A DNA stretch of 64,000 nt from an uncultured Clostridia bacterium (GTDB lineage Bacteria; Bacillota; Clostridia; Oscillospirales; Acutalibacteraceae): assembly GCA_944380675.1 (NCBI GenBank), contig CALWIH010000002.1:280-64279 (forward strand). Reading direction: 5' to 3'. This document shows positions 4,324 through 42,560 of this stretch, piece after piece (position 1 is the stretch's first letter; the number at the start of each line of letters is the position of its first letter). The notes under the pieces are model-generated. The model searched no databases. It worked only from the letters and a program-made list of their open reading frames with translations, and had not been told where the DNA came from. Position numbers and translations under genes: made by a program.

Positions 4324-4343
4324 TTTTTAGAAAATCTTTAGAA
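4324..4343 (+). promoter_or_regulatory. Direct-repeat regulator box TTTAGAA-N4-TTTAGAA (copy 1)
   Basis: TTTTTAGAAAATCTTTAGAA, 11-bp period, lying where the -35 of the main operon promoter should be; 19/20 identical to the reverse complement of 42438-42457. Confidence 0.6.
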
Positions 4344-4360
4344 AAGTATGAACGAATTTA

Positions 4361-4369
4361 TGGTATGAT
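4361..4369 (+). promoter_or_regulatory. Extended -10 element of the main eCIS operon
   Basis: TGGTATGAT (TGn-TATGAT) with no recognisable -35 hexamer at 17 bp. Confidence 0.45.
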
Positions 4370-4468
4370 AGGGAGGGTAAAATAGTCCGTTTGAAATGAC
4401 GCGCCGCCGGGCGCTTTTCAGGTTCAGGGAGAGACAGGAACACAAAAATCTGCTGTGAGGTGTATTTC

Positions 4469-6256
4469 ATGGAAAATCGTCAGCTTCTGCCGTTTGAACG
4501 AAACCGCTATTACGTCGGCAAGCTTTTGACCTCTGCTGATTTTCAGGCCGAGCAGAGCTACTTTAACAATAAACGCCGCTTTCTCAATCAGATGATGTTT
4601 GGAGCGGGGATCGTCTGCGGGCTGAGCGTATACAGCCTCGATGATCTCTCCGTCATGGTGGAATCCGGCGCAGCCATCGACGGCCTCGGCCGCGAGATTG
4701 TGGTGGAAAATTCCGTCGTGCGCAAGCTTTCCGCCATCGAGGGCTTCGAATCCCTCACCGGCGAGCACGCCGCCCTCTGCCTGCGCTATCGCGAGGAGGC
4801 CGTGCACCCCGTCTGCACCGTCAACCGGATGGAGCGCGACGAGGAGTATGAGCTCAACCGCCTGCGCGAGGGCTGGGAGCTTTTCCTTACCGACGCGTCG
4901 GAGCTCGGCGGGGAGGAGGCCCCGGAGTCGGAGTTCCTCCTGCAGTCGACGCTCTATGAGGACGCCGATTATTCCGTCACCGTGACGGCGCCCGCCGTCG
5001 CGAGCTGCGGCAGCGCTCTGAAGGTGCTGGTTCGCATTCAGAAGACTTCTGAGGCGGACGGCAGATTTTCCATCGACGGCGTCCTGCAGGCGCCCGCCTT
5101 CCTCACGTCCGACGGCGGCCATGAGGCACGGATTCACGCGGTGGATCTCGCTTTGGAGAAGGACGAGTATTTTGACTGCGTCTGCTGGCTTTCGGCGCAG
5201 CAGCCCGCCGACGAGGCGATTCTGCTGGCAAAGACGGACACGATGCGCATCACGGTCAACGGAGCGGAAAAGCCTGTGCCCGATTCCTTCCTGCTCAAGC
5301 TTTCGGTCTCCTCCGACTCTGTTGAGGACATCCTCTCCCGCGAGGTGGGCCGCGCCAGCCTCGAGACGCGCAGCTTTTCCGCGCCGCCCGAGTACATCCG
5401 GCTCGCCGACATCACCCTGCAGCTGACGAAGAACGCCTACATCATCGACCGCGTCGAGGAGCGCGGCGTGAAGAAATATCTCCATACGACCTCCGGCGAG
5501 GAGACGCGCCGCGCCTACGCGGAATGGTTCTCCGCCGCCGGGACGGACGCGCCCGCCGCAGCCGCGCAGCTGCGCGAGCAGAGAACCGGCGGCCTGACCT
5601 TCCAGGAGCCGCTTTACGCGACCGGCACCTGCGAAATCCCGCTCGGCGACAGAGCGCGCCGCGGCGAGACCTTCTTCTCCGGCGAGATCATGCACGGCCT
5701 CGGCCCCGGCAACGTCTTTGTCCAGGTCGGCTTCGAGTATCTTGCCGAGGACTCCCGCCTCTTCTCGACGGCCCGCAACACGATTTACGGCGACGTCTCC
5801 CTTTTTGAGGCGGAAAAGCTTCCCGTCCCGACGGCGCAGACGGCCGTGAAGGTCATGAACGACCGCGGCAGCTTCGTCGTCGCGGCGCGGCTCGAGAAGG
5901 AGACGTCCTATGTGATGCTCCTCATGCGCTGGGTCGCCGTCAAGATGCCGTCTGAGGACGACCGCGCTCTCCTGCAGAAGATCGCCGACAAGAGCATCAG
6001 CGCCGTGCAGCCCACGATTCTTCTCGGGACGCACGAGAGCTGCTACTTCAACGTCCGCTTCCGCAACATGGAGCCCTGCGGCCTGACGTACGAGCTGACC
6101 GACAGGGATTCCGGCGAAATCACGCCCGACGGCGTATATACGGCGCCGGCGCGCGAGGGCGTGTACGAGATCCGCATCAGCTGTGCCGACGCGCCGCTGA
6201 TCTGCACCTATGCCTATGCGATCGTGAAGAAAAAAGAGCGCGGGGAAGGCGAATGA
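4469..6256 (+). CDS. CIS-associated protein with N-terminal fibre/baseplate-anchor-like domain and C-terminal Ig-like domain
   Basis: ATG 4469 follows GAGGTG (ORF track opens at GTG 4460). I recognise the N-terminus PFERNRYYVGKLLTSADFQAEQSY...RRFLN..FGAGIVCGL from phage-tail/CIS loci. C-terminus GEITPDGVYTAPAREGVYEIRI looks Ig-like. Confidence 0.55.
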   Translation: MENRQLLPFERNRYYVGKLLTSADFQAEQSYFNNKRRFLNQMMFGAGIVCGLSVYSLDDLSVMVESGAAIDGLGREIVVENSVVRKLSAIEGFESLTGEHAALCLRYREEAVHPVCTVNRMERDEEYELNRLREGWELFLTDASELGGEEAPESEFLLQSTLYEDADYSVTVTAPAVASCGSALKVLVRIQKTSEADGRFSIDGVLQAPAFLTSDGGHEARIHAVDLALEKDEYFDCVCWLSAQQPADEAILLAKTDTMRITVNGAEKPVPDSFLLKLSVSSDSVEDILSREVGRASLETRSFSAPPEYIRLADITLQLTKNAYIIDRVEERGVKKYLHTTSGEETRRAYAEWFSAAGTDAPAAAAQLREQRTGGLTFQEPLYATGTCEIPLGDRARRGETFFSGEIMHGLGPGNVFVQVGFEYLAEDSRLFSTARNTIYGDVSLFEAEKLPVPTAQTAVKVMNDRGSFVVAARLEKETSYVMLLMRWVAVKMPSEDDRALLQKIADKSISAVQPTILLGTHESCYFNVRFRNMEPCGLTYELTDRDSGEITPDGVYTAPAREGVYEIRISCADAPLICTYAYAIVKKKERGEGE

Positions 6257-6296
6257 CGCCCGGTATCCTCGCAGCGTGAAAGGGGGGTGAGGCAGG

Positions 6297-7151
6297 TTGG
6301 TTTTTCATGCGGATGATATGCTCCTTTCACCCGTCCGGGAGGTGCTCCGCGGGCCGGTGAACGATATCCTGGTCTGCCGGGATCTGCGCTCCTCTGCGCG
6401 CAGCAGCTACCTCCTGATCGCGATTCGCGACAGAGAGACGGCGAGGCGCGTCCTCGCTGTGCTGCAGAGCTCCCAGCGGGAGACGGGGGGAAAGAGCCCG
6501 TATCTGAAAATGTTCACGGAAAACGAGTATCTCTGCTTCCTGTTCGAATACCGCCCCGAGCGCCGGCTTGACCGCTTTTCCGACGGCCAGCTCACGACGC
6601 CGCAGTCGCGCGAGCGCGTGTGCGTCAACCTTGTGATGGAGTGCCTGTCGAGCGCGCTGCCGTTCCCGCTTCTTTATCTTGCGCTTGAGAAGGAGAACGT
6701 CCACCTGCTGCAGGACGACGGCGTGTATCTCACCTGCTGCTTCGATCTCAGCCGCCTCGACGAGTCGATCGGCGAGGCCGAGTGCGCGGATCGCTGCGTG
6801 CAGATCCTTCTCGACCTTCTGCGCCGCCAGTCGCGGCGTCAGCTCAAGAGCTTTGAGCTTCTGCGGAAAAAATCCGAGCGCGGCGCGTACGGGAGCCTTC
6901 CGGAATTATACCGCGATATCCGCTTCTCCTCGCTCCCCGAGCAGAAGACGCCGTTCCGCAAACGGTTGGCGGCCTTCTGGGAGCGAAACAAGGATCTCTT
7001 TTTCCGCATTCTGCTGCGCGTCTGCGTGATTCTTGCCGCCGCGGCGGTGATTATTCTGATTTGCCAGCTTCTGTTCGGCGGATTCCCGCTGCTTCGCCTG
7101 TTCCAGAACACCTTTGAGGTGATTGGGACGGAAAATCTGACGATGGCCTGA
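6297..7151 (+). CDS. Membrane-anchored protein with probable pseudokinase fold
   Basis: TTG start. LEKENVHLLQDDGVYL resembles the kinase catalytic-loop region without HRD or DFG. Single C-terminal TM (ILLRVCVILAAAAVIILICQLLF). Confidence 0.5.
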   Translation: MVFHADDMLLSPVREVLRGPVNDILVCRDLRSSARSSYLLIAIRDRETARRVLAVLQSSQRETGGKSPYLKMFTENEYLCFLFEYRPERRLDRFSDGQLTTPQSRERVCVNLVMECLSSALPFPLLYLALEKENVHLLQDDGVYLTCCFDLSRLDESIGEAECADRCVQILLDLLRRQSRRQLKSFELLRKKSERGAYGSLPELYRDIRFSSLPEQKTPFRKRLAAFWERNKDLFFRILLRVCVILAAAAVIILICQLLFGGFPLLRLFQNTFEVIGTENLTMA

Positions 7152-7167
7152 AAGGAGGAAGCCCGGA

Positions 7168-9696
7168 ATGAAAAAAGCGATTGCAGCCGTGGTGCTGCTC
7201 GGCGTTCTGCTTGCCGCCGTGCTCGCCGCGACGCCCTCGGGTCTTCCCAATCTGTCCGGCGCGCAGCATACGCTGGCCCTCACGGAGGATCAGACGGCTT
7301 ATGTCGCGGAAAACCGCGAAGCCGTGTCGTGGATCTATGGGCTTGACAGCGCGGGCGCCGTGCAATCCGCTTATATGGACGCGGAGGGCCATCGGATTCT
7401 TCTTCTCACGGCGTTTGAGAACAATGTCTATTTCGTGCGCGCGTCCCGTTCCTCTGAGAATTGGGAGCTTTGTCTGCTGAAGGACGCTGAGGCGGAGACT
7501 GTCTTCTCCTCCTCGAGGGACTATCCCGATCCGCCGTCGTCCGTCAGCGTCTCTGATTCCGGAATTGATTTGACCTTCCTCGACGGGGAGGACGTCAGCG
7601 TCTGCCGCGTCTCCGGCGAGGGCGAGCCCGTCGAGCTTCTTACGGCGGACGCGCAGGGTGCTCCGGTGACGGCCGCCTATGCCGGCGGAAAGCTCTATAC
7701 CCTCATGACGGACGGGACGATCCGCACCTACAGCGCCGGCGGCACGGCGGACGCGGAGGAGCTCGGCGGCTTCTCGCTGCTCTCCGTCTCGCAGGGTTCC
7801 GTCTGGGCTTACCGGCAGGAGACCGGCTCCGCGTGCGCGGGCGCATCGGCTGTCCGCACCGGTTCCGGCGACGAGCTCAGCAGCGGAGATGTTCTCTGCG
7901 GCGCGCATACCGAAAACGGCGGCGCCGTTCTCTCCGCGGAAAACGGGGAGACGGTCCTCGTCCGGTCGGGCGCTCAGGTTGTCCGCCAGAGTCCGTCGGC
8001 GTCCTTCCGTTTCCGCCTTGTTTTCAAGCTGCCGCTTCTGCTCGCTGTGATGGCGGCGTATCTCGTGTGCGCCGTCGTGCTGCTGCTGACCGTTTTCCTC
8101 TGCGGAAGGGCGAAGCGCCTCGCCGCCCGCGTGACGGTCTGCTGCGCCTGCCTCTTCCTGTTTGCCGCCGGTATCGCCGGCATGATCGCCGTTTCCCGCT
8201 CCGCTGCGGCCGAGGAGGCTTCTCTGCTCGCGCAGGCTCAGACCGCCGGCCAGCTGCGCGCCGATTCGATGGAGAACCTCGCGCTGATCGACACGGAGGA
8301 CGCACTGCTTCCGCTGCTTGACGCCGGGCAGAGCGGCGAGGTGCGGTATGACGCCGTTCTTCTGACGCCGGAAGGCGACAGCGTCCTTCTCTCCTGCCTG
8401 TCTCCGGCCGGAACGCCCGCCCGGACGGCCCTCGGCGCCGAAGCCGGCGCGTTCGCCGAAGTTTGCGCAGAGACGGGGACGAACGCGCAGGCCGTGTTCC
8501 GCAGCGGGACGCTTTGTGCCGTCGACGTGCGCTCCGTGTACTGGTACGGCAGCGAGAGCGCCCGGCTTGTCACCCGTGTCTCCCGCGCGGCGGGAGGCGT
8601 CGACTGGCTCGGCTGCTTCCTGGTTCCCCTGCTCGCCGCCCTCGCGGCCATCTTCGCCGTCGCGATGCTTTCCTTCACGATGCTGCGTCCCCTTCGCCAG
8701 ATGACGCGCCGGATGCGCGCCGTCTCCGTGGGAGATTTCGTGATGCCCGCGATGCGTACGGGCTCCGACGAGGTCGGCGAGATGTGGCAGTCTCTGCGGG
8801 AGATGGCCGTCGCCCTGCGGATCAAGGATTATGAAACGAATGCCACGGTGCGCTCTTTTTACCGGTTTGTGCCGCGCGGCCTTGAAAAGCTGCTTGACCG
8901 GGCCTCCGTCATGGAGACGAGCCTCGGCGATATGGCGAACGTCTCCGGTACGGTGGCGGTGCTCTCCATCCAGAACCGGGAGGATATGCGCCAGCGCCTT
9001 GACGACGACGGCTTTATGAGCTTCTTGAACGACAGCTACTCCGTCGTCGACCGCCAGCTCACGGAGCACGAGGGCTTCCTGCTCTCAAGCGGCTTCGACC
9101 TCGAGGGACTTGACCTGCTGTTCCGCGACTCGTCCGATCAGGGGCTGTCCTTCAGCCTCGGCCTGCTCGGCGAGGTCAACGGGATGGCAAGGGAGCAGGC
9201 GCCGGACTTCTTCCTGTTCCTGCACAGCGTGACCTTCCTCTACGGACTCGTCGGCACGGAGCAGCGCAACTTCTCGCTCCTGTCGTCGTCCGAGCTCTCC
9301 TTCCTCAAGACGCTCTCCCCGAAGTTCCGCCGCACCGGCGTGCGCATCGCGGCGACGGAGGCGTGCCTGCGTTCCATGACGCAGCCGTGCGCGTCCCGGT
9401 ACATCGGCTTTGTCTCGTCGGAGGACGGCAAATACACCTATAAGCTTCACCAGATCCTCGAGGGGTGCTCCGATATGGAAAAATCGCTGTGCCTCTCATA
9501 CGACGATAAATTCCAGAAGGCGATCGGCCTGTTCTGCCAGAACGATTTCTATCTCGCGAGAAACCTGTTCTCCGCCGTCCTCAAGCTCAACCCGGCGGAC
9601 GGCATTGCCCGCTGGTATCTCTTTGCCTGCGAGCACTATTTCAATAACAGCGAGCCGGGCGGAGAGGTTTACAGCCTGTTCGGCATTGAAGATTGA
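7168..9696 (+). CDS. Membrane sensor with HAMP, degenerate class III nucleotide cyclase domain and C-terminal TPR-like region
   Basis: Signal/TM, extracellular region and further TMs; HAMP LRPLRQMTRRMRAVSVGDF...DEVGEM; cyclase-type SFYRFVP..LL...LGD...TVAVLSI...FLN; TPR-like tail FQKAIGLF...ARNLFSAVLKLNPADGIARWY. Confidence 0.75.
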   Translation: MKKAIAAVVLLGVLLAAVLAATPSGLPNLSGAQHTLALTEDQTAYVAENREAVSWIYGLDSAGAVQSAYMDAEGHRILLLTAFENNVYFVRASRSSENWELCLLKDAEAETVFSSSRDYPDPPSSVSVSDSGIDLTFLDGEDVSVCRVSGEGEPVELLTADAQGAPVTAAYAGGKLYTLMTDGTIRTYSAGGTADAEELGGFSLLSVSQGSVWAYRQETGSACAGASAVRTGSGDELSSGDVLCGAHTENGGAVLSAENGETVLVRSGAQVVRQSPSASFRFRLVFKLPLLLAVMAAYLVCAVVLLLTVFLCGRAKRLAARVTVCCACLFLFAAGIAGMIAVSRSAAAEEASLLAQAQTAGQLRADSMENLALIDTEDALLPLLDAGQSGEVRYDAVLLTPEGDSVLLSCLSPAGTPARTALGAEAGAFAEVCAETGTNAQAVFRSGTLCAVDVRSVYWYGSESARLVTRVSRAAGGVDWLGCFLVPLLAALAAIFAVAMLSFTMLRPLRQMTRRMRAVSVGDFVMPAMRTGSDEVGEMWQSLREMAVALRIKDYETNATVRSFYRFVPRGLEKLLDRASVMETSLGDMANVSGTVAVLSIQNREDMRQRLDDDGFMSFLNDSYSVVDRQLTEHEGFLLSSGFDLEGLDLLFRDSSDQGLSFSLGLLGEVNGMAREQAPDFFLFLHSVTFLYGLVGTEQRNFSLLSSSELSFLKTLSPKFRRTGVRIAATEACLRSMTQPCASRYIGFVSSEDGKYTYKLHQILEGCSDMEKSLCLSYDDKFQKAIGLFCQNDFYLARNLFSAVLKLNPADGIARWYLFACEHYFNNSEPGGEVYSLFGIED

Positions 9697-9724
9697 CCGG
9701 TATTCGGGGAAAGGCGGGTGACCG

Positions 9725-10984
9725 ATGAACAGAATATTGCAGACGCTGTACGCCTCGATTCAGGCGAAGGTCATGGGTCTGTGGACGAAAATCCGCCTTT
9801 GGACCAGCCGGGCCTATTGGGAATCGAAGGGGATCACCACCCTTCGGCAGTTCTTCTCGAAGCTCCTGAGCATCAAGCCGCGGGACAAGACGGACTATTA
9901 TTCCGTATCCCGATGGCTTGTCAGCAAGCGTCTTGCCTTTGCGCTTGTGGTGCTGGTGGGACTGGCGAGCGTTTTGTACATCCTTGTTTTTTCCCCGGTC
10001 AATTCCCTGTTCCAGAGCGACGGGACGACGCTTCCCACCTATTGGTACAATTCCATCCCGCTCAAATTTGCCGGCGGGAAGGTGCAGATTCTTGCGGCGG
10101 ACGGCCACCTCGCCTATGTCGGCGACGTCGCCGACGGGGAGGCCGCGGGCGCAGGAAGCCTGTACCGCGCGGACGGCAGCCTCGTGTATGAGGGCGCCTT
10201 CGCCGAAAGCCGCTACAACGGGACGGGCAGCCTGTATTTTCCCGACGGCGTGCTCCAATATCAGGGCGAGTTCGCGGACAACCTCTATCAGGGGCAGGGA
10301 AAGCTTTACCGCCAGACCGGCGTGCTGGAGTATGAGGGCGAGTTTCTCAAGGGGATGAAGTCCGGCGCGGGCGTGCTGTACAACAGCGGCGGGACGCCGA
10401 TCTTCACCGGGAATTTCCTCGCGGACCGGCTTCTCTACGCCGAGTTTGTCGGCAAGACGACGGCGGAGGCCTCCCAGATGTACACGGGAAGCATCAGCGT
10501 GTACAGTTCGTCGAACGAGTACTGCGCGTCCATGGACGAGATCCATGCCGTCTACACGACGGCAGACGCCTCCGACACGCTTTCCGAGGAGTGGACGATC
10601 AGCCAGGTGCTCGTGGAGGATTCCGTCTTCCCCACTGCGGAGGGGGAGATTTCCACCATCAACGAGCTGACCGCCTATTTCGGAGAGCCCTCCTACTTCG
10701 GCTACACCTGGCCGACGCTCACGGAGGCCGTCGCGATCCGCAGGCTGAGCGAGGCGGGGAAGGGCCGCTTCGCCGACATCGAGATGGAGACGACGTCGTC
10801 GCTCCGGGATGTCGTCACCGTGAATTCCTACGATTTGGACTATGAGCTTTACATCTATACCTACGAGATGGACGGCCTGACGTACACCTTCTACTGCGAT
10901 TCAAGTACGTCGAGCTTTTCCATGTACGCGATTGAACAGAGCGATTCGGCTTCGGCGGAAGCGCAGCAGGAAGGAGGAGAGTGA
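9725..10984 (+). CDS. MORN-repeat membrane protein
   Basis: One TM (LAFALVVLVGLASVLYILVF) followed by repeats YEGAFAESRYNGTGSLY, YQGEFADNLYQGQGKLY, YEGEFLKGMKSGAGVLY. Confidence 0.85.
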   Translation: MNRILQTLYASIQAKVMGLWTKIRLWTSRAYWESKGITTLRQFFSKLLSIKPRDKTDYYSVSRWLVSKRLAFALVVLVGLASVLYILVFSPVNSLFQSDGTTLPTYWYNSIPLKFAGGKVQILAADGHLAYVGDVADGEAAGAGSLYRADGSLVYEGAFAESRYNGTGSLYFPDGVLQYQGEFADNLYQGQGKLYRQTGVLEYEGEFLKGMKSGAGVLYNSGGTPIFTGNFLADRLLYAEFVGKTTAEASQMYTGSISVYSSSNEYCASMDEIHAVYTTADASDTLSEEWTISQVLVEDSVFPTAEGEISTINELTAYFGEPSYFGYTWPTLTEAVAIRRLSEAGKGRFADIEMETTSSLRDVVTVNSYDLDYELYIYTYEMDGLTYTFYCDSSTSSFSMYAIEQSDSASAEAQQEGGE

Positions 10985-10986
10985 GA

Positions 10987-13029
10987 ATGAAGAGGAGACG
11001 GAGCCTGCGGCAGGCAGTCAGCGTGCTGCTCTGCTTCTGCCTGATTGCGCCCCTGTTTGTCCTGTCGCCCGTCAGCGCGGCGGCTCCGAAAACGCTCCAG
11101 CTTCAGCAGGCCAGACGAATGGTGCTCACGAACAACTCCGAAATCACAAAGACGTACAACGAGATTCTTCTGAAGGAAATCCAGTATACGGAGGCCGTAA
11201 AGGAAATCAAGGCGAAGGTCAAGAACCTCACAAGCTTCCGCTGGACGCCGCTGCTCAGCTTCAAGTTCCCCGAGCAGCTCGACATGAGCGAGGAATATGA
11301 CCTCAACGTCAAGCCTCTCAACCTGCAGACGGAGATTGACGTGCTCCGCCACAAGATGGCGATGATGGAGTACGACGAGCTCGCCCGCATCAACAACGCG
11401 TTTCTTGACGCGTATGTCTGTCAGGAGAAGGTCTCCTTCAACGAGGAGCGGCTTTCCGCCGCGGAGACCGACCTCGCGAGGAACAAGGCGCGGCTGACAA
11501 CCGGCGAGGCAACGCAGGCCGACGTCGACACGATGCAGTCCACCGTCGATTCGCTCACAAGCGACCTCGCGCAGCTCAAGCGAAACCTGCAGACGGCGCT
11601 CGAGGAGGTCAGCGACCTCATCCACCTCGACGTGACCTCCGGCTACACGCTCGCCAGCCCCGTGGTGGACGCGCAGATCCCGCGCGGCGACCTCGAGGAT
11701 ATCATTGAGCACGCGATGGAAAACAGCCAGACGATCTATGAGGCGAAGATGGCCGTCTCCACCGCGCAGGTCAACCTCGATTCCTATGAGTCGCTCATGC
11801 GCAGCCAGTACGGCTCCAAGCTGAATGTCATCAACAACTTCCTGACGCAGGTCAGAAACGGCGAGGACGTCGATTACGCGGCTTTCCAGCTCAAATACAA
11901 CGAGATGCTTGCATCCTTCGATCGGCCGTGGAACGGCTCCGTCCGGATTTTGTTCTTCAAATTCACCAAGGAATGGTTCAAGGGCGAGATCGACGGTACG
12001 CGCTATATCGAAAACGACCTCTATGCTCTGATGACGGCGTGCAAGGAGTATACGACCGCCGTTACAGAGCTGGAAGCCGCGGAAAAGACGCTGCGCAGCG
12101 AGATTACCTCCAGCTACGAGGCGATCGTCACGGCGCGCAACGCCTACCTCGGCCTTGTGGAGTCCACGGAGCAGGCGAGAGAGGACCTCGAGCGCCTCGT
12201 CGCCCTCAACCAGCTCGGCAAGGCGGAGTACAGCGAGGTCAAGACAAAGCAGGACGAGTACCAGTCCAATCAGCTCGACATGATCGACGCGCTCGCCACC
12301 TACGACGAGCTCCTCTTCAATCTTGACGCCACGACGTGCGGCGCGATTACCCCCTATCTCGAGGGGACGAGCGTGAGCACGAGCGCCGGCTCCGGCGGCG
12401 ACAGCATCGTCACCGACGACGCGACCGTGCCGCACTATTACATCTATACCGACATTTCCGACATGGTTTTCGTCTTCGGACTTGAGATTCCCGAGGAGTT
12501 CGAGCCCGCCGTCACCGATTATGAAATCTGGTACAGCGGCACGCAGATCGGCGAGCGCACGCCCGTCGGCGAGCAGCTCCGCCATCTCGCGCTCGACTAC
12601 AAGGGCACCTGCACCCTGACGGTCCGCCTCTACGAGGGCGAGGACTTCGTCACGGAGTGCGAGATCGATACGACGGTCACGCGCGACATTCTTCCGATCG
12701 AGGCCGCGCAGGCGGAAACCGTGCCCGAGGACACGCAGTGCGGCGCCTACTCGGTCGACACCGTCTCCCACGGCTCGCTGAGCACCAGCACGCTGACGCT
12801 CTCGCTCGACGCCTCCACCGGCGCGAAGTACTTTACCCTCGTCAGCGGCAGCGGTTCGAGCGTCTATACGGAGGAGCCCGTCGCGGCGGACGATACCTTC
12901 TCGTACCTGACGCTGCTCATCAGCAGCCTGTCCGACGTGACCATCCGCCTCTACGACGCGGACAAGAACGAGATCGGCACAGCCTATTTCAACGAAGATA
13001 CCCAGACCATCTGGATGACGGCGCAGTGA
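10987..13029 (+). CDS. Secreted TolC/outer-membrane-efflux-protein-like helical protein with C-terminal beta-rich extension
   Basis: ATG 10987 after AGGAGG; signal peptide ending VSA/AA. Two TolC-like repeat starts (TLQLQQARRMVLTNNSEI; DLEDIIEHAMENSQTIYEAKMAV), each followed by long amphipathic helices. Confidence 0.6.
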   Translation: MKRRRSLRQAVSVLLCFCLIAPLFVLSPVSAAAPKTLQLQQARRMVLTNNSEITKTYNEILLKEIQYTEAVKEIKAKVKNLTSFRWTPLLSFKFPEQLDMSEEYDLNVKPLNLQTEIDVLRHKMAMMEYDELARINNAFLDAYVCQEKVSFNEERLSAAETDLARNKARLTTGEATQADVDTMQSTVDSLTSDLAQLKRNLQTALEEVSDLIHLDVTSGYTLASPVVDAQIPRGDLEDIIEHAMENSQTIYEAKMAVSTAQVNLDSYESLMRSQYGSKLNVINNFLTQVRNGEDVDYAAFQLKYNEMLASFDRPWNGSVRILFFKFTKEWFKGEIDGTRYIENDLYALMTACKEYTTAVTELEAAEKTLRSEITSSYEAIVTARNAYLGLVESTEQAREDLERLVALNQLGKAEYSEVKTKQDEYQSNQLDMIDALATYDELLFNLDATTCGAITPYLEGTSVSTSAGSGGDSIVTDDATVPHYYIYTDISDMVFVFGLEIPEEFEPAVTDYEIWYSGTQIGERTPVGEQLRHLALDYKGTCTLTVRLYEGEDFVTECEIDTTVTRDILPIEAAQAETVPEDTQCGAYSVDTVSHGSLSTSTLTLSLDASTGAKYFTLVSGSGSSVYTEEPVAADDTFSYLTLLISSLSDVTIRLYDADKNEIGTAYFNEDTQTIWMTAQ

Positions 13030-34978: not shown

Positions 34979-35278
34979 ATGACGATTTCATCCAGCATCA
35001 AAGACAATCAGGCGGTGCTTCTGGTGGATGGGCGCGTGGATACGAACACGAGTCCGCAGCTTCAGAGCGCCATTCTCGGCGCCTTTCAGCGGTCGGCTCA
35101 CGTTGTGGTCGACTTTGAGAAGGTTCCCTACATCAGCAGCGCCGGTCTTCGCGCGCTCCTGATTGGCCAGAAGACAGCGAACTCGAAGCGGGCCGTGATG
35201 GAGCTTGTCCATGTCTGTCCCGCCGTGATGTCGATTCTGCAGTCCGTCGGCTTCAGCGATATTCTGACGATCCGCTGA
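34979..35278 (+). CDS. STAS anti-anti-sigma factor (RsbV/SpoIIAA-like)
   Basis: VDGRVDTNTSPQL, VVVDFEKVPYISSAGLRALL (phosphoacceptor Ser motif); AAGGAGG RBS, 25 bp after the tail-I stop. Confidence 0.93.
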   Translation: MTISSSIKDNQAVLLVDGRVDTNTSPQLQSAILGAFQRSAHVVVDFEKVPYISSAGLRALLIGQKTANSKRAVMELVHVCPAVMSILQSVGFSDILTIR

Positions 35279-35325
35279 ATCCGGATCGCTTCCCTTCCTT
35301 TTGCATACTGTGAAATGCGTAAGGT

Positions 35326-35365
35326 TGTCCGCGGACGCGAGGTGCGTCCGCCGGACAGCTTTTTT
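35326..35365 (+). terminator. Rho-independent terminator closing the eCIS-STAS operon
   Basis: Stem GCGGACGC/GCGTCCGC with outer TGTCC/GGACA, followed by TTTTTT. Confidence 0.65.
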
Positions 35366-35433
35366 GAGGTTAAGGCCCTTTTGCCGCGTCTGAGGGGCCT
35401 GTTTTCCGGGAAACACCATTTGCCCGCTGATCG

Positions 35434-35480
35434 AAAAAAGCTCCTGCGAAGGCGTCTGAGCAGCCTTCGCAGGAGCTTTT
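35434..35480 (-). terminator. Rho-independent terminator for the NRPS-phosphatase operon (possibly bidirectional)
   Basis: 18-bp perfect inverted repeat AAAAGCTCCTGCGAAGGC-N9-GCCTTCGCAGGAGCTTTT with T tracts on both strands. Confidence 0.75.
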
Positions 35481-35499
35481 GGCATTCCGGAGGAAACGG

Positions 35500-36936
35500 T
35501 CAGGTCACGTCGAGGGCAAGCATCGTGATGTCGTCAAACTGCTCCGCGCCCGCTGTGAAGGCGTCCATGGAAGCCTTGACGCCGGAGAGCAGCTGGTCGA
35601 GCGGAAGGTTGGAGGCCTGGTTGAGCGCCTGAATGAGGCGATCGTCGCCGTAGAGCTCGGTCGACGCGTTGATGGCCTCCGTCACGCCGTCCGTGTACAG
35701 GAACAGGCGGTCTCCCTTGCTGAGCTGAATCGAATCCTCGCGGTACGCCATGCCCTCGAGGCCGGCGAGGACGAAGCCGGGCTTTGTCCGGAGGAACTGG
35801 AAGCCCTCGCCGCTGCGGCGGAGCAGAGGCGGGTTGTGGCCGGCGTTGACGAACGTCAGCAGCTTCGTGTCGAGGTCGAGCACCGCCATGAACGAGGTGA
35901 CGAACATCCCCTCGCCGTTGTTCTCACAGAGCTGGTCGTTGACGCGGGTGAACACCTCGCCGAGCGGGATGCCGGGCTGTGTCTGATTCTTGATGAGCGT
36001 CTTCGTGATGACCATGAACAGAGCGGCAGGCACGCCCTTGCCGGAGACGTCGGAGATGACGATGGCGAGGTGGCGGTCGTCGACGAGGAAGAAGTCGTAG
36101 AAGTCTCCGCCGACCTCCTTCGCGGGCTCCATGGAGGCGTAGACGTCGAACTCGTCGCGCTCCGGGAAGGCCGGGAAGATGCAGGGCAGCATATCGCGCT
36201 GGATGTTCCGGGCGACGTTGAGCTCCGCCTGCGTCTTCATCGCGCGGGAGGACCACAGGGCGTTCGAGAAGATGAGCCAGTACATCACGCCGAAGACCAC
36301 GCAGATGATGAGGTAGAACAGCACAAACAGCATCCCCGTCTGCGGCAGCAGGCCGACGGCCTGCACAATCTGCACGATACAGAAGAAGCCGAAGGACGCG
36401 ATAAACGGGATCGGCACATACCGCCCCATCTTGTGGGAGAGGATGTTGAAGACCTCGATCACCGTCTTGCGGACGAACACGATCAGAATCGCGCCGATGA
36501 TGACGGCGATCAGCGCCTTCATCAGGGTAAACGGAATCAGGAACTGATAGCCCACCTCGCCGTACGGATCGATGGTGCTGATCATGGCTGTCGTCGTCAG
36601 GCCGGTGAGGAACGAGCCGACGTTCGAGATAAAGATGACGGTGACGACGGTAAAGAGCTTGGTGCTGATCGGCTCCTTGTAGAGGAAGAAGCAGGGAAGC
36701 GGCAGAAAGATCATCCATCCGAAGAAGATGAAGTAATCCCACCACTGCGGTCCGGTGACGGTGCAGCCGATCCAGGCAAACAGGAAATAGCACAGGAGCG
36801 CCGCCCCCCAGCTGAGCCAGGGCACGACAGGCTTTCGCTTGCATTCCAGCGTCATGTGCGTCAGTACGACCGCGAGACAGGCGGAGACAAGCCCCGCCGC
36901 AGCGTACCAGAAGGCGTTGGACAGTAAAATGTTCAT
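35500..36936 (-). CDS. Membrane-bound PP2C/SpoIIE (RsbU-like) Ser phosphatase
   Basis: Multi-TM N-terminus; PAKEVGGDFYDF, VISDVSGKGVPAALFM, NAGHNPP, LFLYTDGVTEA, QFDDITML, with metal-binding Asp residues intact. Confidence 0.93.
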   Translation of the reverse strand: MNILLSNAFWYAAAGLVSACLAVVLTHMTLECKRKPVVPWLSWGAALLCYFLFAWIGCTVTGPQWWDYFIFFGWMIFLPLPCFFLYKEPISTKLFTVVTVIFISNVGSFLTGLTTTAMISTIDPYGEVGYQFLIPFTLMKALIAVIIGAILIVFVRKTVIEVFNILSHKMGRYVPIPFIASFGFFCIVQIVQAVGLLPQTGMLFVLFYLIICVVFGVMYWLIFSNALWSSRAMKTQAELNVARNIQRDMLPCIFPAFPERDEFDVYASMEPAKEVGGDFYDFFLVDDRHLAIVISDVSGKGVPAALFMVITKTLIKNQTQPGIPLGEVFTRVNDQLCENNGEGMFVTSFMAVLDLDTKLLTFVNAGHNPPLLRRSGEGFQFLRTKPGFVLAGLEGMAYREDSIQLSKGDRLFLYTDGVTEAINASTELYGDDRLIQALNQASNLPLDQLLSGVKASMDAFTAGAEQFDDITMLALDVT

Positions 36937-36962
36937 TGGTTTTTCTACCTCCCCTTGGAAAA

Positions 36963-39900
36963 TTATATGCCGAACGCGCCGAGCATATCGAGGTTCGTCA
37001 GACAGGTGACAAGGTATTCGCGCGTGATTTCCGGCCAGCGGAAGCCGCTCCGATCGAGAATGCCGGAGGTCAGGCGGCAGACGCAGCCGATCTCGTAATG
37101 ACCCTCGGCTTCTCCCTGCAGCTCGGAAGCGACGTCGACCAGCAGGTCGCGCTTCTCCGGCTGAGCGAGAATGTCCGCAATTCGCTTCTCATACTCCGCG
37201 TCGCTCACGCGCTCGATCTCGTAGCCGATGTCGCCCAGGCTCTCAAAGATCGTCTGATACGAGGTGCGCTTGTCGTTGAAGATATGATAGATCGGCTGCT
37301 TCGAGGAAGCGCCCGCAAACTTGACGATGAGCTGCGCCGTGCAGTCGACGGGGGAATAGTCAACGTCCCCCGCCCAGACGGATTCCGGCGCGAAGCCGAG
37401 ACGGATGTACGTCTTGAGCCGTGAGGTGAAGGCGTTCGCCATGTGGTTGATCTGGAACTCGCCGTCCGAGAAGCGGCCCTGCAGGTTGCCGACGCGGAGA
37501 ATTTGCGCGTCCAGACCCTTCTCGATGGCGGCGAGCACCTCGCGCTCGCCGAGAAATTTGCTCGCGGCGTAATCGTTGCTCAGATCCTGCCTGAAGTAGA
37601 AGTCCTCCTCCGTCAGGAAGGGAATGCGCTCGGTGCGGTTTTCCAGGGCGAACTGGCCGATGGTCGGCGTGGAGATGTGGATGAAGCGCGCGCCGCGCTC
37701 CATGCACAGCGCGGCGAGCCGCCGCACGCCGCCGACGTTGATCTGATACATTGCGTCGCCATAGGTAAAGTGGGAAACGTCCGCCGCACAGTTGATGGCT
37801 ATGTCGAATTCCGCGGCCGTCCCGTTCAGAATATCGTCCTTTGTCAAATCGCCCTCCACGACGGAGAGGCGGCTCTCAAACGCCTCGTCGAAGCTGTCGC
37901 CGAAGTAGTAGAACAGCATCGTCTTGATTCTCTGCTCGGCGGCGAGCTTGCCCTTCGGACGCGCCATGCACAGCACGGTGCTGTCCGTCGTCTCGATCAG
38001 CTCCCGCAGAACGTGCAGGCCGAGGTAGCCCGTGGAGCCCGCGAGGAGGACACGCTTCGGCACGGGGCCGAAGGAGACGTCCCGCTTCCATTTGAGCAGA
38101 GGAGCGAGGGAGGCGTAGTCGAAGTCCGCGATCTCCGGACGCTCGGAGACGACGGGCTCCTGCCTGAGTCCGGCGCACATGAGGCGGACGGTCGGATTTG
38201 AGAAGACGGTTGAATATTTCAGCGGGATGCCTGCGGCCTCCGCCTCAATCGCGAGGTGCGCCGCGAGCAGCGAGTCGCCGCCGATCTCGAAGAAGTTGTC
38301 GTCGATGCCGATGCGCTCCTTCTCGAGCAGCTTCCCCACGATGGCGCACAGCGTTTCCTCCTGCGGCGTCTCCGGCGCGCGGTATTCGACATGGACGGAA
38401 ACCTTCAGCGCCGCGAGTGCCTTCTTGTCCGTTTTGCCGCTCGACGTGACGGGCATTTCCGGGATCTGCAGGAACGCGGAGGGCACCATATAGTACGGCA
38501 GCGTCTCCGAGAGGCGGCCGCGGAGCTCCTCGGCCGGGATCTGGCGCGGGGAGGTGAAGTAACCGCAGAGGAACTGCACCTTGCCGTCGTTTTTCAGCAG
38601 GACGCAGCAGCTCGTCACATCCGGGACGGTGCTGAAGACGGATTCGATCTCGCCGAGCTCAATGCGGAAGCCGCGCAGCTTGACCTGATCGTCCATTCGT
38701 CCGAGGTAGACGAGCTCTCCGCCCCGGCTCCAGCGGACGAGGTCGCCCGTGCGGTACATCCGCTTTCCGTCCGTTTCGATGAAGCGGGCCGCCGTTTCCT
38801 TCGGAAGATTCCGGTAGCCGCGCGCCAGCCCGACGCCGCCGACGCAGAGCTCGCCGGGGCAGCCCGCCGGGAGCAGCTGGCCGCGCTTGCCGAGAACGTA
38901 CACGGAAAGACCCTTGACCGGGACGCCGAGGTTCGCGTTCGGACTGAATACCTCCTGCGCGGAGGTTACGATAGTCACCTCGGTCGGGCCGTACGCGTTG
39001 AAGATGCGCAGCCGCGGCGCGAGAGCGCGGAGCTTTTCCCAGAGCGCCGGCTGGAAGGCTTCGCCGCCGCTCATCAGGACGTCGAGCCCCCTGACCGCCT
39101 CGCGGAAGTCCTCATAGCCGAGGTAGGAGAGGAGGCGGGAGGGCGTCGCGAAGAGAACGTTCGATTTCTCCTCCTGCATCCGCCTGCCCAGCAGGGCCGG
39201 GTTGTCAATTTCCTCCTGCGAGGCGAAGCAGACGGAGACGCCGTTGAGAACCGGCGTGAAAATCTCAAGCACGGAGATGTCGAACGAGAGCGAGCCGATG
39301 GCGTGCGCCGTGCGGCCGCACTTTGCCGTCGCCGAGATGAGCGAGCAGCTGTCCGGCCGCGCCAGGTTGACGAGGCCGCGGTGCTCAATCAGGACGCCCT
39401 TGGGTCTGCCCGTCGTGCCGGAGGTGTAGATGCAGTAGCAGAGCCCGTCCGGCCGGACATCCGCCTTTGGCGGCTCGTCGGAGAACGCGAGAGCGTCCTC
39501 GTAAAGCAGCGGGGAGATTTCCCCGGGCAGCTGCGCAAGGAATTTCTCCTGCGTGATGACGCACGAGACGCCCGCGTCGTGCAGGATGAACTCAATGCGA
39601 TCCTTCGGATACGTCGGCTCGAGGAAGAGGAAGCCCTGCCCCGCCTTGAGGATGCCGAGCACCGAGACAAAAACCGCCGGCCCTCTCGGCAGCATGACGG
39701 CCGTCAGGCGTTCTCCGCCGCCGCAGCGGGAGAGCAGCGCGTTCGCCACGGCGTTCGCGCGAAGCGACGTCTCGCGGTATGTCAGCGACTCCCCGGCGCC
39801 GCGCACGGCGCAGCGCTCCGGCGTTTTCGCCGCCTGCCGCTCAAAGAGATCGACGACGGTGTCGTTCGACGGCGCGGGCGTCAGGCTGCACTGGCCGAGG

Positions 39901-41222
39901 CGGTCGAGCAGCTCCCTTTCCTCGGCGGCGACGACGGAGAAGGCGCGCAGGGGCGCGGCGGGATTGGCCGCCGCCGTCTCGAGGATCTGCATCAGTCCCT
40001 CGTGCAGGCGGCGGATCTCCTGCTCGTCAAAGAGCACCTTGCGGTGGTCGTAAAACACGGTGTAGCTGTCGTCAAAGAGGTCGAGGACGTGCAGAATCAA
40101 TCCGCCCATCATCGTCGACGGATCGCCGAACCATACGTCGATCGGGAAGTGATAGTCCCCGACGTCGATCTTCGTCTTCTGGTAGGAGACGGACGCGTCG
40201 ATGAGGTCGCGGGCGCTGTCCTGCCCGGCGGCGGCGTCCTCGACGATCCGCATCAGCGGATATTTCTTATGCTTTGCCGCCCGCGCCGACCGCGCGGCGA
40301 CGTCCCGGCAGAAATCGAGGAACGACGCGTCCGGATCCGGCGTGCAGCGCAGCGGAAGCTCCATGACGAACATCCCCACGCAGCCGCGCTCCGCCTCGGT
40401 GTCGCGGTTCAGGCGCGGCAGGCCCATCACGACGTCCCTGCAGTCCGCGCGCTGGAAGAAGTACAGGCACAGCGCGGCCGTGAACAGGATGTACGGCTGC
40501 AGCCCGCAGTCGCGGGAAAATTCCTTGATGCGCCGCGAGACCTCCGCGGAGAGCCGGAACACGCGCCGCGAGGCCGAGCGGTCGCCCGTCGCCTCCGGGC
40601 TGAGATAGGATTCGCTCAGGGAGAGGTTCCCGAGGGCTTCCTTCCAGAACGCGCGGTCCGCCTCGGCTCCCTCTCCCCGCAGGTACGCCTCCTCCTGCGG
40701 GAGAAAGTCGACGGGGGAGGGATGACGGTGCGAGGGCGTCTGCCCGTCTCGGATCATGAGATAGTTGGAGAATATCTCAGACCAGAGCAGGCCGGTCGCC
40801 CAGCCGTCGCACCAGATATGATGGAATTTACAGAACATCCCGCTGCACCGGTCGCTGAGCCGGACGAGCCGGAACTCCACGAGAGGGGCGTTGAGGAACG
40901 CGAAGGGCCGGTGCCCCCAGCGCCGGAACGTATCCTCCTGCTCCTGCTGGGACAGCGCGCGCAGATCCTCCTCGGGAAGGGACGTATGCATATACGGCGC
41001 GATGTACTGCACGATGGTTCCCTCGGGAGAGGCAATCTGCGTGCGCGCGCCGGGATTCTCGCGGAGAAAGAGATTGACAGCCTCCTCCATGCAGTCGTGC
41101 CGCAGCGGTTCGCGCGCTTTCAGCACAAAATACAGGACGTTCACGTCCGTGCCGGAGGCGACAATTTCCTGGGAATAAATATTTTGCTGAGCCAGGGAAA
41201 GCGGGTAATAAGTTGATTCCAT
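36963..41222 (-). CDS. Single-module NRPS, C-A-T-R (thioester reductase)
   Basis: C: SLAQQ, HHIWCDG. A: YTSGTTGRPKG, NAYGPTE, YRTGD, GRMDDQVKLRGFRIELGEIE, SGK. T: FFEIGGDSL. R: LAGSTGYLG, YAASK, RVGNL. Confidence 0.95.
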   Translation of the reverse strand: MESTYYPLSLAQQNIYSQEIVASGTDVNVLYFVLKAREPLRHDCMEEAVNLFLRENPGARTQIASPEGTIVQYIAPYMHTSLPEEDLRALSQQEQEDTFRRWGHRPFAFLNAPLVEFRLVRLSDRCSGMFCKFHHIWCDGWATGLLWSEIFSNYLMIRDGQTPSHRHPSPVDFLPQEEAYLRGEGAEADRAFWKEALGNLSLSESYLSPEATGDRSASRRVFRLSAEVSRRIKEFSRDCGLQPYILFTAALCLYFFQRADCRDVVMGLPRLNRDTEAERGCVGMFVMELPLRCTPDPDASFLDFCRDVAARSARAAKHKKYPLMRIVEDAAAGQDSARDLIDASVSYQKTKIDVGDYHFPIDVWFGDPSTMMGGLILHVLDLFDDSYTVFYDHRKVLFDEQEIRRLHEGLMQILETAAANPAAPLRAFSVVAAEERELLDRLGQCSLTPAPSNDTVVDLFERQAAKTPERCAVRGAGESLTYRETSLRANAVANALLSRCGGGERLTAVMLPRGPAVFVSVLGILKAGQGFLFLEPTYPKDRIEFILHDAGVSCVITQEKFLAQLPGEISPLLYEDALAFSDEPPKADVRPDGLCYCIYTSGTTGRPKGVLIEHRGLVNLARPDSCSLISATAKCGRTAHAIGSLSFDISVLEIFTPVLNGVSVCFASQEEIDNPALLGRRMQEEKSNVLFATPSRLLSYLGYEDFREAVRGLDVLMSGGEAFQPALWEKLRALAPRLRIFNAYGPTEVTIVTSAQEVFSPNANLGVPVKGLSVYVLGKRGQLLPAGCPGELCVGGVGLARGYRNLPKETAARFIETDGKRMYRTGDLVRWSRGGELVYLGRMDDQVKLRGFRIELGEIESVFSTVPDVTSCCVLLKNDGKVQFLCGYFTSPRQIPAEELRGRLSETLPYYMVPSAFLQIPEMPVTSSGKTDKKALAALKVSVHVEYRAPETPQEETLCAIVGKLLEKERIGIDDNFFEIGGDSLLAAHLAIEAEAAGIPLKYSTVFSNPTVRLMCAGLRQEPVVSERPEIADFDYASLAPLLKWKRDVSFGPVPKRVLLAGSTGYLGLHVLRELIETTDSTVLCMARPKGKLAAEQRIKTMLFYYFGDSFDEAFESRLSVVEGDLTKDDILNGTAAEFDIAINCAADVSHFTYGDAMYQINVGGVRRLAALCMERGARFIHISTPTIGQFALENRTERIPFLTEEDFYFRQDLSNDYAASKFLGEREVLAAIEKGLDAQILRVGNLQGRFSDGEFQINHMANAFTSRLKTYIRLGFAPESVWAGDVDYSPVDCTAQLIVKFAGASSKQPIYHIFNDKRTSYQTIFESLGDIGYEIERVSDAEYEKRIADILAQPEKRDLLVDVASELQGEAEGHYEIGCVCRLTSGILDRSGFRWPEITREYLVTCLTNLDMLGAFGI

Positions 41223-41250
41223 AGGAAACGGTTCCTTTCTGTATTCAGAG

Positions 41251-41270
41251 GGGCGAAGCGCGCTTCGCCC
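41251..41270. repeat. Perfect 20-bp palindrome between the RsbW-like and NRPS genes
   Basis: GGGCGAAGCGCGCTTCGCCC; no downstream U-tract on the coding (minus) strand. Confidence 0.6.
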
Positions 41271-41351
41271 GAAAAAGCATGGGAACGCCTGAAAAAGCCG
41301 CTGCTTCCCGCCGGACAGGCGAGAAGGTCAAGGGCGGACGCGCCGTCCGCC

Positions 41352-41804
41352 TTACTTGTCTGCCGCCGCGAGCAGCTTTTTCATCATGAAGCAGTTTTGA
41401 CCGTCGCGATATTCGTAAGCGACCTCGTCCATACTCCTGCGTACCATATAAATGCCCAGGCCGCCGATTTGCCGGTCTTCGGCGCTCAGCGTGACGTCGG
41501 GATCCTCTCTGGCAAGCGGATCATACGGCGTGCCGCGATCCATGAAGTCAATCCGAATGCTCAAGGGCTCGTCCTCCAGCGTCCAGGACAGCGTCACGGG
41601 GCCGCGTCCGGGCTCGTAGGCGTAAAGAGCGATATTGACGTAGATCTCCTCTACGGCGATGTCGATCACGATCTTTTCCTCCTCCGGAACGCCGAGCGCG
41701 TCCAGCGGGGAGTTGATAAATTCGAGGACACCGTCGAGCTGCTGGGTTTCTGCCGAGATGGTGATCGTTTTCGATTTCGGAATTCCGGGACGCAGGTAGT
41801 TCAC
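41352..41804 (-). CDS. RsbW/SpoIIAB-like anti-sigma factor Ser kinase (HATPase_c)
   Basis: IAVEEIYVNIALYAY, DRGTPYDP, RQIGGLGIYMVRRSMD; GTG start. Confidence 0.92.
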   Translation of the reverse strand: MNYLRPGIPKSKTITISAETQQLDGVLEFINSPLDALGVPEEEKIVIDIAVEEIYVNIALYAYEPGRGPVTLSWTLEDEPLSIRIDFMDRGTPYDPLAREDPDVTLSAEDRQIGGLGIYMVRRSMDEVAYEYRDGQNCFMMKKLLAAADK

Positions 41805-41890
41805 AGCATCACACCCCTGTTTTCATTGCGCGCCCGCCGGTCCGTACACTTCTGTGAAGGACCGGCTCGGGCCTTCATCTTCCTATCTGT

Positions 41891-41920
41891 ATTATAAGTC
41901 CCCCGCCTTCCTTTTGTAAA
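41891..41920 (-). promoter_or_regulatory. SigmaA-type promoter for the RsbW-NRPS-PP2C operon
   Basis: Minus strand TTTACA-N18-TATAAT. Confidence 0.55.
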
Positions 41921-41946
41921 GCAAGACGAAGCGTTCGGAAAAAAGA

Positions 41947-41964
41947 TTTAGAAAAATTTTAGAA
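41947..41964 (+). promoter_or_regulatory. Direct-repeat regulator box TTTAGAA-N4-TTTAGAA (copy 2)
   Basis: TTTAGAA AAAT TTTAGAA, 11-bp period, about 27 bp upstream of the -35 of the RsbW-NRPS promoter. Confidence 0.55.
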
Positions 41965-42011
41965 ATAAAACGCGCGCCCCGGATTTGCAGCGGAGCAAAT
42001 CCGGGGCGCGC
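41962..42011 (-). terminator. Rho-independent terminator of the DUF6514-like gene
   Basis: 17-bp stem GCGCGCCCCGGATTTGC / GCAAATCCGGGGCGCGC followed on the minus strand by GTTTTATTTC. Confidence 0.7.
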
Positions 42012-42055
42012 ATTGCGGGGAATCGCCTGTGGGACGGCTTGAGCGGAAGCGGCTT

Positions 42056-42307
42056 TCAGGCCGTTTCCGTTCGGAAATCCTCCGCCAGCTCGGGAAGGTT
42101 ATCCGCAAAAACCAGTCCCTCGGCCAGGAGCTTTGCAAAGTCTGTCGCCTTGCGAAGATTTTCGGGAGTGGAGGGAAGCAGCGTTTCCGAGACGCTGCGC
42201 TCCGCAATTTCCCGGATCTCAATGCCGATTCCCTTCTCGTCCTCCCGGACGACGTACTCCATGGTCAGATGATTCCATTTTGCTTGTCCTACTACCGTAC
42301 TTGTCAT
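42056..42307 (-). CDS. Small protein resembling DUF6514
   Basis: ATG 42307 after GGAGG; pattern GIGIEI...ATDFAKLLAEGLVFADNLPELAEDF; has its own promoter and terminator. Confidence 0.65.
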   Translation of the reverse strand: MTSTVVGQAKWNHLTMEYVVREDEKGIGIEIREIAERSVSETLLPSTPENLRKATDFAKLLAEGLVFADNLPELAEDFRTETA

Positions 42308-42368
42308 GCCTCCACACCTCAATCAAAGATGATAATACAGACTTACCAATCTGCCTTTGGCAATTCTT

Positions 42369-42397
42369 ATCTTACACAATGAAGAGAGGTCGGTCAA
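42369..42397 (-). promoter_or_regulatory. SigmaA-type promoter of the DUF6514-like gene
   Basis: Minus strand TTGACC-N17-TAAGAT. Confidence 0.6.
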
Positions 42398-42420
42398 TGG
42401 GTAAAAAGACGGAAGTTTGA

Positions 42421-42560
42421 TGTGAATAAACGCCACATTCTAAAGATCTTCTAAAAATCGCACATTTTGACTCTCAAAAAACAAAAATGCCTATATAATG
42501 CGAGATTTTATTTTCTGATTTTCCGATGCATGGAAGTTATTTCCAAAGATTTGTGGATAA
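42421..42560 (-). promoter_or_regulatory. Two consensus DnaA-box matches in an AT-rich spacer
   Basis: Minus-strand TTATTCACA (42421-42429) and TTATCCACA (42552-42560), both fitting TTWTNCACA. Confidence 0.4.
42438..42457 (-). promoter_or_regulatory. Direct-repeat regulator box TTTAGAA-N4-TTTAGAA (copy 3)
   Basis: Minus strand TTTTTAGAAGATCTTTAGAA, one mismatch to 4324-4343. Confidence 0.6.

Follow-up and report, generated by a model that had tools for sequence, protein, structure and literature searches.

A 64,000-nucleotide stretch of DNA from an uncultured Clostridia bacterium of the Acutalibacteraceae (contig CALWIH010000002.1, positions 280 to 64,279; the window in what follows) carries three copies of the direct repeat TTTAGAA-N4-TTTAGAA, referred to here as boxes 1 to 3, close to genes for an extracellular contractile injection system (eCIS). 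The box is a genuine feature, well beyond what chance would give, and base composition offers no explanation for it. To judge from its sequence and surroundings it is very probably the docking site of a two-component regulator encoded next door, and the explanation that we favor, with good if incomplete confidence, is that it forms the operator of the response regulator at 2253-2966, with class II activation of the eCIS operon, modulation of an rsbW-like operon and a regulon that extends further still.

The exact copies lie at 4326-4343 (+), 41947-41964 (+) and 42438-42455 (-), positions and strands that had been given in an earlier note on this DNA and that a pattern search of the window bears out. 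They are the sole exact matches in the whole assembly (2,702,152 bp, or 2.70 Mb, in 188 contigs, 63% G+C) and all fall inside 38 kb, while the half-site heptamer by itself occurs 47 times when both strands are counted. Not a single match was obtained in 100 dinucleotide-preserving shuffles of the window, and a model of local composition (60-200-bp windows) that allows for AT-rich spacers predicts only 0.004-0.008 exact boxes genome-wide, to be compared with the 3 observed. This AT-matched count removes the caveat, attached to the original observation, that the motif is AT-rich and sits in AT-rich spacers. Boxes 1 and 3 are identical at 19/20 bp, spacer included (TTTTTAGAAAATCTTTAGAA vs TTTTTAGAAGATCTTTAGAA), again as claimed previously. 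The half-sites form a direct repeat with an 11-bp period, one helical turn; the core TTTAG-N6-TTTAG is kept in 37 related loci, and the operator consensus over all taxa reads TTTAG(A/C/G)(A/C)-N4-TTTAG(A/G)(A/C). When the genome is ranked with a position weight matrix built from 29 distinct boxes, box 1 comes first (36.7 bits) and box 2 second (35.1 bits); box 3 scores 22.2 bits.

Box 1 (4326-4347, +; 18-bp core at 4326-4343) is made up of two 11-bp units, TTTAGAAAATC and TTTAGAAAAGT. Exactly 20 nt separate its core from the extended -10 element of the eCIS operon (TG-G-TATGAT, TGGTATGAT; 4361-4369, +), and with a predicted start site ~7 nt past the -10, near 4376, the core spans -50 to -33 and is centered at about -41.5. 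A consensus scan of 4250-4480 returned no -35/-10 pair, and the earlier suggestion that box 1 stands in for the -35 in a promoter of the extended -10 type, given the 20-nt gap to a TG-preceded TATGAT, holds at the level of sequence. We have aligned the kinase-to-eCIS spacer with MAFFT for seven species, namely this genome and six further members of the genus whose records are labelled Candidatus Caccousia or 'Anaeromassilibacillus', all six of which have the same AAA-regulator-kinase-eCIS arrangement. Invariant are 17/18 positions of the box 1 core and 6/6 of the -10, but only 6/20 of the intervening gap; the ribosome-binding site is also conserved and nearly all of the remaining spacer is unalignable. 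The length of the gap is nevertheless the same, 20 nt, in 7/7 species, and it is 19-21 nt in distant loci. One species of the seven carries TTTAAAA in box 1, and in two genomes (G003 and G004) a pair of boxes 48 bp apart is found upstream of the eCIS operon. At locus L028 (G001:C3), 7575-13026, an insertion of ~4.6 kb that includes a paralogue of the GNAT-like genes described below parts the kinase gene, which aligns over 269/338 residues, from the eCIS promoter; the box survives there with one substitution (TTTAAAA).

The connection between box and regulator can be followed across genomes. Searching with an alignment of the first eCIS gene brought up 336 related loci, of which we studied the best 80. 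An AAA-regulator-kinase block is present within 6 kb upstream in 18/80. In 21 more genomes a whole-genome search located the regulator's orthologue at some other place (E 1e-63 to 1e-77, 47-57% identity), frequently on a separate contig or at the distal end of the eCIS cluster; the other 41 contain paralogues only. Orthologues were accepted at E<=1e-63 and at least 47% identity, with paralogues at no more than 42% identity and E>=1e-41. When the 300 nt ahead of the first eCIS gene are scored for the succession distal half-site, N4, TTTA[GA]nn, a gap of 19-21 nt and TAnnnT, this box-promoter layout is found in 37/38 scorable regulator-positive loci vs 0/41 regulator-negative ones. The exception among the 38 has a box at a different spacing, and two regulator-negative loci show weak matches with three distal mismatches. 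A reversed-core control produced matches in 1/18 and 5/43 loci, and the mean best -35 scores of regulator-plus and regulator-minus loci are the same (8.76 vs 8.76). Plain adjacency fails to explain the link, because in 20/37 box-positive loci no regulator gene lies within 6 kb. A tree built from the first eCIS gene shows four changes of regulator state, in one large Lachnospiraceae clade and in three isolated losses, one of them within Agathobaculum, and the box follows in 4/4 cases. The locus from Agathobaculum sp. SUG777 (L088), regulator-less in an otherwise regulator-positive genus, retains the TG-extended TATGAT in the 300 nt upstream of its first eCIS gene, with just a degenerate sequence (CTTCAAAAGTTTTTGGTG) at the place of the box, which looks like operator decay after regulator loss.

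The proposed box-binding protein is encoded at 2253-2966 (-) and combines a receiver with a winged-helix domain (Pfam Response_reg, 1e-19; Trans_reg_C, 1.7e-20), as in the OmpR/PhoB family. Its closest solved relatives are MtrA, RegX3 and PhoP, and a comparison with NCBIfam gave no equivalog at cut-off, the PhoB model TIGR02154 scoring 147.7 bits where 296.2 are needed. The recognition helix, RTVMVHISNLRKK, is nearly invariant among orthologues that share 44-83% overall identity and differs in two paralogues from this genome. Downstream, the gene for an AAA+ ATPase (1-2256, -; eCIS Afp15/Pvc15-like, Pfam AAA 7.6e-27) starts where that of the regulator stops; because the two overlap by 4 nt they are probably co-transcribed, and the adjacency is kept both in the genus and in distant loci. 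A histidine kinase (3255-4271, +; Pfam HisKA and HATPase_c) is encoded divergently. As read from its sequence, the N-terminus consists of two hydrophobic helices joined by a loop of apparently ~5 residues; a sensor domain is missing, which suggests a kinase of the intramembrane-sensing type. Regulator and kinase genes each have an ordinary sigma-A promoter.

Box 2 (TTTAGAAAAATTTTAGAA; 41947-41964, +) lies ahead of a second operon (35500-41804, -) that encodes an RsbW-like HATPase_c_2 kinase (41352-41804, -), a nonribosomal peptide synthetase (NRPS) with one module of C-A-T-R architecture (36963-41222, -), from which we presume an N-acyl amino aldehyde or alcohol product, and a SpoIIE/PP2C phosphatase (35500-36936, -), assigned with Pfam and NCBIfam. 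The promoter of this operon (41891-41920, -) is a near-consensus sigma-A promoter, TTTACA-N18-TATAAT, that matches at 11/12 positions and is conserved in the seven species. The box is inverted relative to the operon, 26 nt upstream of the -35 and centered at about -71.5. In 7/7 species it is found in this orientation 26-27 nt ahead of CTTTACAAAAG (the -35), followed by N17-18 and TATAAT, with variable sequence between box and -35, and in two distant genomes an inverted box again precedes the TTTACA of rsbW by 26 nt. In the present genome the T-tail of an intrinsic terminator (41969-42014, -; a 20-pair stem with 13 G-C pairs) that belongs to a small gene upstream runs into box 2; the box is not a by-product of that terminator, because it is conserved in species where none lies ahead of it. 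The RsbW-like/PP2C pair flanks the eCIS in distant genomes without an NRPS, and this genus alone has one inserted between kinase and phosphatase; the gene arrangements thus point to the kinase and phosphatase as the conserved partner of this eCIS lineage and to the NRPS as a genus-level insertion.

The status of box 3 is different. This copy (TTTAGAAGATCTTTAGAA; 42438-42455, -) precedes the small gene, of 83 aa (42056-42307, -), with its center at about -84.5 relative to a promoter, TTGACC-N17-TAAGAT at 42369-42397, that is kept in all seven species as TTGACC-N17-TGTGTAAGAT. The label 'DUF6514-like' that had been given to the gene could not be sustained, as there is no Pfam match at E<=0.001 or even at E<=1 and no NCBIfam match. 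Short of an even chance, yet a serious contender for this copy, is the possibility that box 3 is a recent and possibly non-functional site and that the small gene is no true member of the regulon. Among the seven species the complete box is present only here; the sister species, with nearly identical flanks, reads TTTATCAAATATTTAGAA, differs at 4-5 positions of the distal unit and keeps one half-site, and these two are also the only genomes in which the gene adjoins the NRPS operon, the five others having it elsewhere and without a box. Moreover, at about -76 to -93 the site is a long way upstream of a conserved and self-sufficient promoter, and its proximal half overlaps a palindrome, ATGTGAATAAACGCCACAT (ATGTG-N9-CACAT, 42420-42438), which sits just upstream of that promoter, is kept in all seven species wherever the small gene is found and is probably the site of another dimeric regulator. 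On the other side of the balance stand the 19/20 identity to box 1, spacer included, and the number of exact boxes: a third is too improbable for pure chance, and we are therefore left with recent recruitment or a decaying site. The link to the small gene would then be lineage-specific at best.

Judging from further boxes, the regulon is not confined to the window and takes in GNAT-like genes of two other contigs. The third match in the genome ranking (C71:2653-2674, -; 31.8 bits) has the order box-20 nt-TATACT before a gene for a GNAT-like acetyltransferase, an arrangement shared with the sister species; a 500-aa protein without a family match is encoded next. At C66:10955-10976 (-), TTTAGGAAACCTTTAGGC lies 31 nt before TGGTATAAT, upstream of a paralogous GNAT-like gene, both acetyltransferases being about 285 aa in length. 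In G002 the eCIS promoter and the divergent promoter of a GNAT paralogue each have a box with standard spacing, and in the distant genomes G065, G062 and G089 additional boxes with the 20-nt geometry are found near the cluster. In G001 and G002, GNAT paralogues lie within the eCIS cluster or adjacent to it. Separately, in two species a gene for an XRE-type helix-turn-helix protein with tetratricopeptide repeats (L017, G003:C73; L066, G004:C138) has a conserved box (TTTAGAAAATCTTTAGAA and TTTAGGAAATCTTTAGAA, respectively) ~100 nt upstream, near locus position 1501; this box has no counterpart in the genome of the window.

From the sequence features, their conservation and spacing, and the co-occurrence of box and regulator, we infer the following course of events. 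The regulator, paired with the intramembrane-type kinase and probably co-transcribed with the eCIS ATPase, would in its phosphorylated form bind as a head-to-tail dimer to the two 11-bp units with their TTTAG-N6-TTTAG core. At the eCIS promoter the box near -41.5 would substitute for the missing -35, with the regulator recruiting RNA polymerase to the extended -10 in class II, pho-box-like activation, whereas at the rsbW-like/NRPS/PP2C operon the inverted box near -71.5, a class-I-like position, would modulate a promoter that is already complete. The GNAT-like promoters on the two other contigs, and the small gene at 42056-42307, perhaps a recent acquisition, would be included in the regulon as well. 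Several points weigh against this explanation. The divergent regulator/kinase promoter is free of boxes in the five species inspected and thus bears no signature of autoregulation, which we have rejected for this box; box 2 is placed ahead of a promoter that looks self-sufficient, and its effect could be nil or negative; box 3 is complete in a single genome of the seven. The phylogenetic evidence consists of only four independent contrasts (sign test, p=0.125), too few for significance, because most of the regulator-less loci form one Lachnospiraceae clade, and as the genomes compared are mostly metagenome-assembled, like that of the source organism itself, incompleteness could hide some regulators. 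Finally, TG-extended -10 promoters can work without a -35, so that a protein bound at the -35 could also repress.

It is this last point that leads to the strongest alternative for the box as a whole, in which the regulator binds but represses, silencing the eCIS operon until it is dephosphorylated. We consider this improbable, with some weight left to it because the -10 is extended and the TG extension is conserved; tight repression would also be plausible for particles that are costly and, in the systems studied, linked to lysis. Activation is favored over occlusion because spacing and orientation have been fixed over large evolutionary distances: a 20-nt gap (19-21 nt in distant loci) and a single orientation across families are what activators that touch the polymerase show, while occluding repressors tolerate variation. 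In addition, the geometry fits those of the pho-box and BqsR activators, and box 2 sits outside the core promoter.

Distinctly less probable again is that a different factor encoded elsewhere, such as CodY, binds the box and that the association with the local regulator reflects linkage. Of the 15 positions in the CodY consensus AATTTTCWGAAAATT, box 1 does share 11 and box 2 shares 10, and most of the regulator-less loci form one clade. However, the CodY domain PF06018 is absent from the genome in a search that finds the B. subtilis and L. lactis controls, and the positions conserved across genera make up no palindrome but two copies of TTTAG in direct repetition with an 11-bp period, so a CodY box was rejected. 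Also against a factor from elsewhere, the genome holds only about 5 sites, Pfam found no further DNA-binding protein among the scanned proteins of the window, and the box tracks the regulator even when the latter is tens of kb off or on another contig. A Spo0A box (TGTCGAA) was rejected on sequence alone, since two positions of the core disagree and it would not be confined to this locus. Very improbable indeed is an AT-rich UP-element-like feature or a chance product of AT-rich spacers without any protein operator: the A/T-richness of the element and the terminator T-tract bordering box 2 speak for it, but the exact boxes far exceed the 0.004-0.008 expected, both half-sites keep their fifth-position G across families, the box is missing from each of the 41 homologous loci that have no regulator, AT-rich though many of these are, the reversed-core control finds little, and box 2 persists where no terminator precedes it, the conserved G positions together with the absence from regulator-less homologues leading us to reject a UP element.

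The operator reading preserves the core of what the earlier note had proposed, a local regulator whose regulon joins the eCIS and NRPS/partner-switch blocks, as indicated by 7/7 conserved footprints for boxes 1 and 2, the 37/38 vs 0/41 co-occurrence, the invariant helix and the fixed spacing. Three points call for qualification: the small-gene link is unconserved; the NRPS is a genus-specific insertion, and a partner-switching module cannot be made out, since beside the kinase and phosphatase neither a STAS antagonist nor a sigma factor was found in any scanned protein of the window, though these may be encoded elsewhere; and the regulon reaches other contigs. An extension of the reading that we offer as speculation, unlikely as it stands, is that the kinase senses envelope injury, for instance by a rival's bacteriocin or injection machine, and that one operator fires a counter-attack, a signal-inducible 'retaliation regulon' shared by many gut Oscillospirales. 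To be viewed with the same reserve is the programme it might comprise: the eCIS, a kinase and phosphatase gating its assembly or release, in this genus an NRPS-derived peptide aldehyde, and the GNAT-like accessory or cargo genes.

The remainder of the window was mapped from a profile of third-position G+C (GC3) together with Pfam and NCBIfam. The Afp/PVC-like eCIS cluster, with its operon at 4460-34953 (+), is recognized by Pfam from Phage_sheath_1 (sheath), T4_gp19 and CIS_tube (tube), Phage_base_V (spike), DUF4280 (PAAR-like tip), GPW_gp25, Baseplate_J and Tail_P2_I (wedge), Pvc16_N and, upstream of the operon, the AAA ATPase. The first gene of the operon has a CIS13-like N-terminus with an NCBIfam score below cut-off; its translation most likely begins at the ATG at 4469, behind a GAGGTG ribosome-binding site. 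In the predicted 5' leader, at 4396-4422, a short G+C hairpin is followed by a T-run (GCGCCGCCGGGCGCTTTT); a comparable hairpin is found in some species, not all, and the terminator scan was not passed. No Rfam family matched anywhere in the window. Beyond the small gene lie an SDR gene (42603-43349, -) and an unrelated, conflict-system-like block (43549-62785, +) without boxes, comprising a Double-GTPase, two Hsp70-like proteins (one VWA-fused), GAP1-M and a HerA/FtsK-like ATPase, and ending with a DNA/RNA non-specific endonuclease, a YezG-like immunity gene and a transglutaminase-like protein.

To our knowledge the on-switch is not known for almost all eCIS machines, and we know of nothing for those of gut Firmicutes. 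Now in hand are a candidate operator, TTTAG-N6-TTTAG, with its promoter geometry, a regulator with a signature helix and a kinase of apparent intramembrane type, a set whose operator and regulator are conserved across Oscillospiraceae, Butyricicoccaceae (Agathobaculum) and related genera. They provide a sequence rule for predicting co-regulated accessory or cargo genes, as for the RsbW-like/PP2C pair, the NRPS and the GNAT-like family. The element appears to be of an ordinary kind, a pho-box-like operator in which both the sequence and the regulator subfamily are new and the target is a useful one; the mechanism is conventional and the value lies in a concrete, testable on-switch for injection machines of gut commensals.

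Comparison with known regulation of injection machines brings out what is distinctive. Geller et al. 2021 report regulators of the GerE/LuxR, BTAD/SARP and RfaH types beside eCIS loci, with no operator given in the passages available, and, as a histidine kinase adjoins some of the GerE genes, propose two-component control; those passages yielded no reference to an OmpR-type (Trans_reg_C) regulator (PMC8213781). Like the known eCIS regulators (RfaH-like AnfA1 of the Serratia Afp, GerE, BTAD), the present one is a dedicated gene beside the cluster; unlike them it is part of an OmpR-type pair with a defined operator, a promoter geometry and a multi-operon regulon in gut Oscillospirales. In the literature, which we have covered in part, we found no description of an OmpR-type regulator or operator for a Clostridia eCIS, and such partial coverage does not prove absence. 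An RsbW-like kinase with a SpoIIE/PP2C phosphatase recalls the partner-switching systems RsbW/RsbV/RsbU and SpoIIAB/SpoIIAA/SpoIIE; here, however, no STAS or sigma component was found in the window and, in this genus only, an NRPS separates the two genes.

Among operators, the pho box of E. coli PhoB is the natural reference. As in that system, the box consists of two 11-bp direct-repeat units, each with a conserved core and an A/T-rich tail, it stands in for the -35 at a constant spacing to the -10, it occurs more than once at some promoters (those of G003 and G004 here), and the regulator is a receiver joined to a winged helix. The core is CTGTCAT there and TTTAG(A)A here, with a 20-nt gap from the 18-bp core to the -10; our regulator is no PhoB equivalog and its kinase, of intramembrane type, has neither a PAS domain nor periplasmic sensing; and, in place of phosphate genes, an injection machine and a kinase/phosphatase operon are targeted. 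A Pho regulon proper was accordingly rejected, on the TIGR02154 score and on a TTTAGAA core vs CTGTCAT-N4-CTGTCAT. The closest in sequence among validated OmpR-family operators is TTAAG(N)6TTAAG, the box of BqsR (CarR) in Pseudomonas aeruginosa; it overlaps the -35, and gel shifts have shown it to be necessary and sufficient for binding of its OmpR-like regulator (PMC4358008). Its format equals that of the box described here, and the two differ in setting: the BqsR box serves an autoregulated proteobacterial regulon for Fe(II)/cation stress, whereas ours belongs to a Firmicute, leaves the regulator's own promoter free of boxes and has an eCIS as its target.

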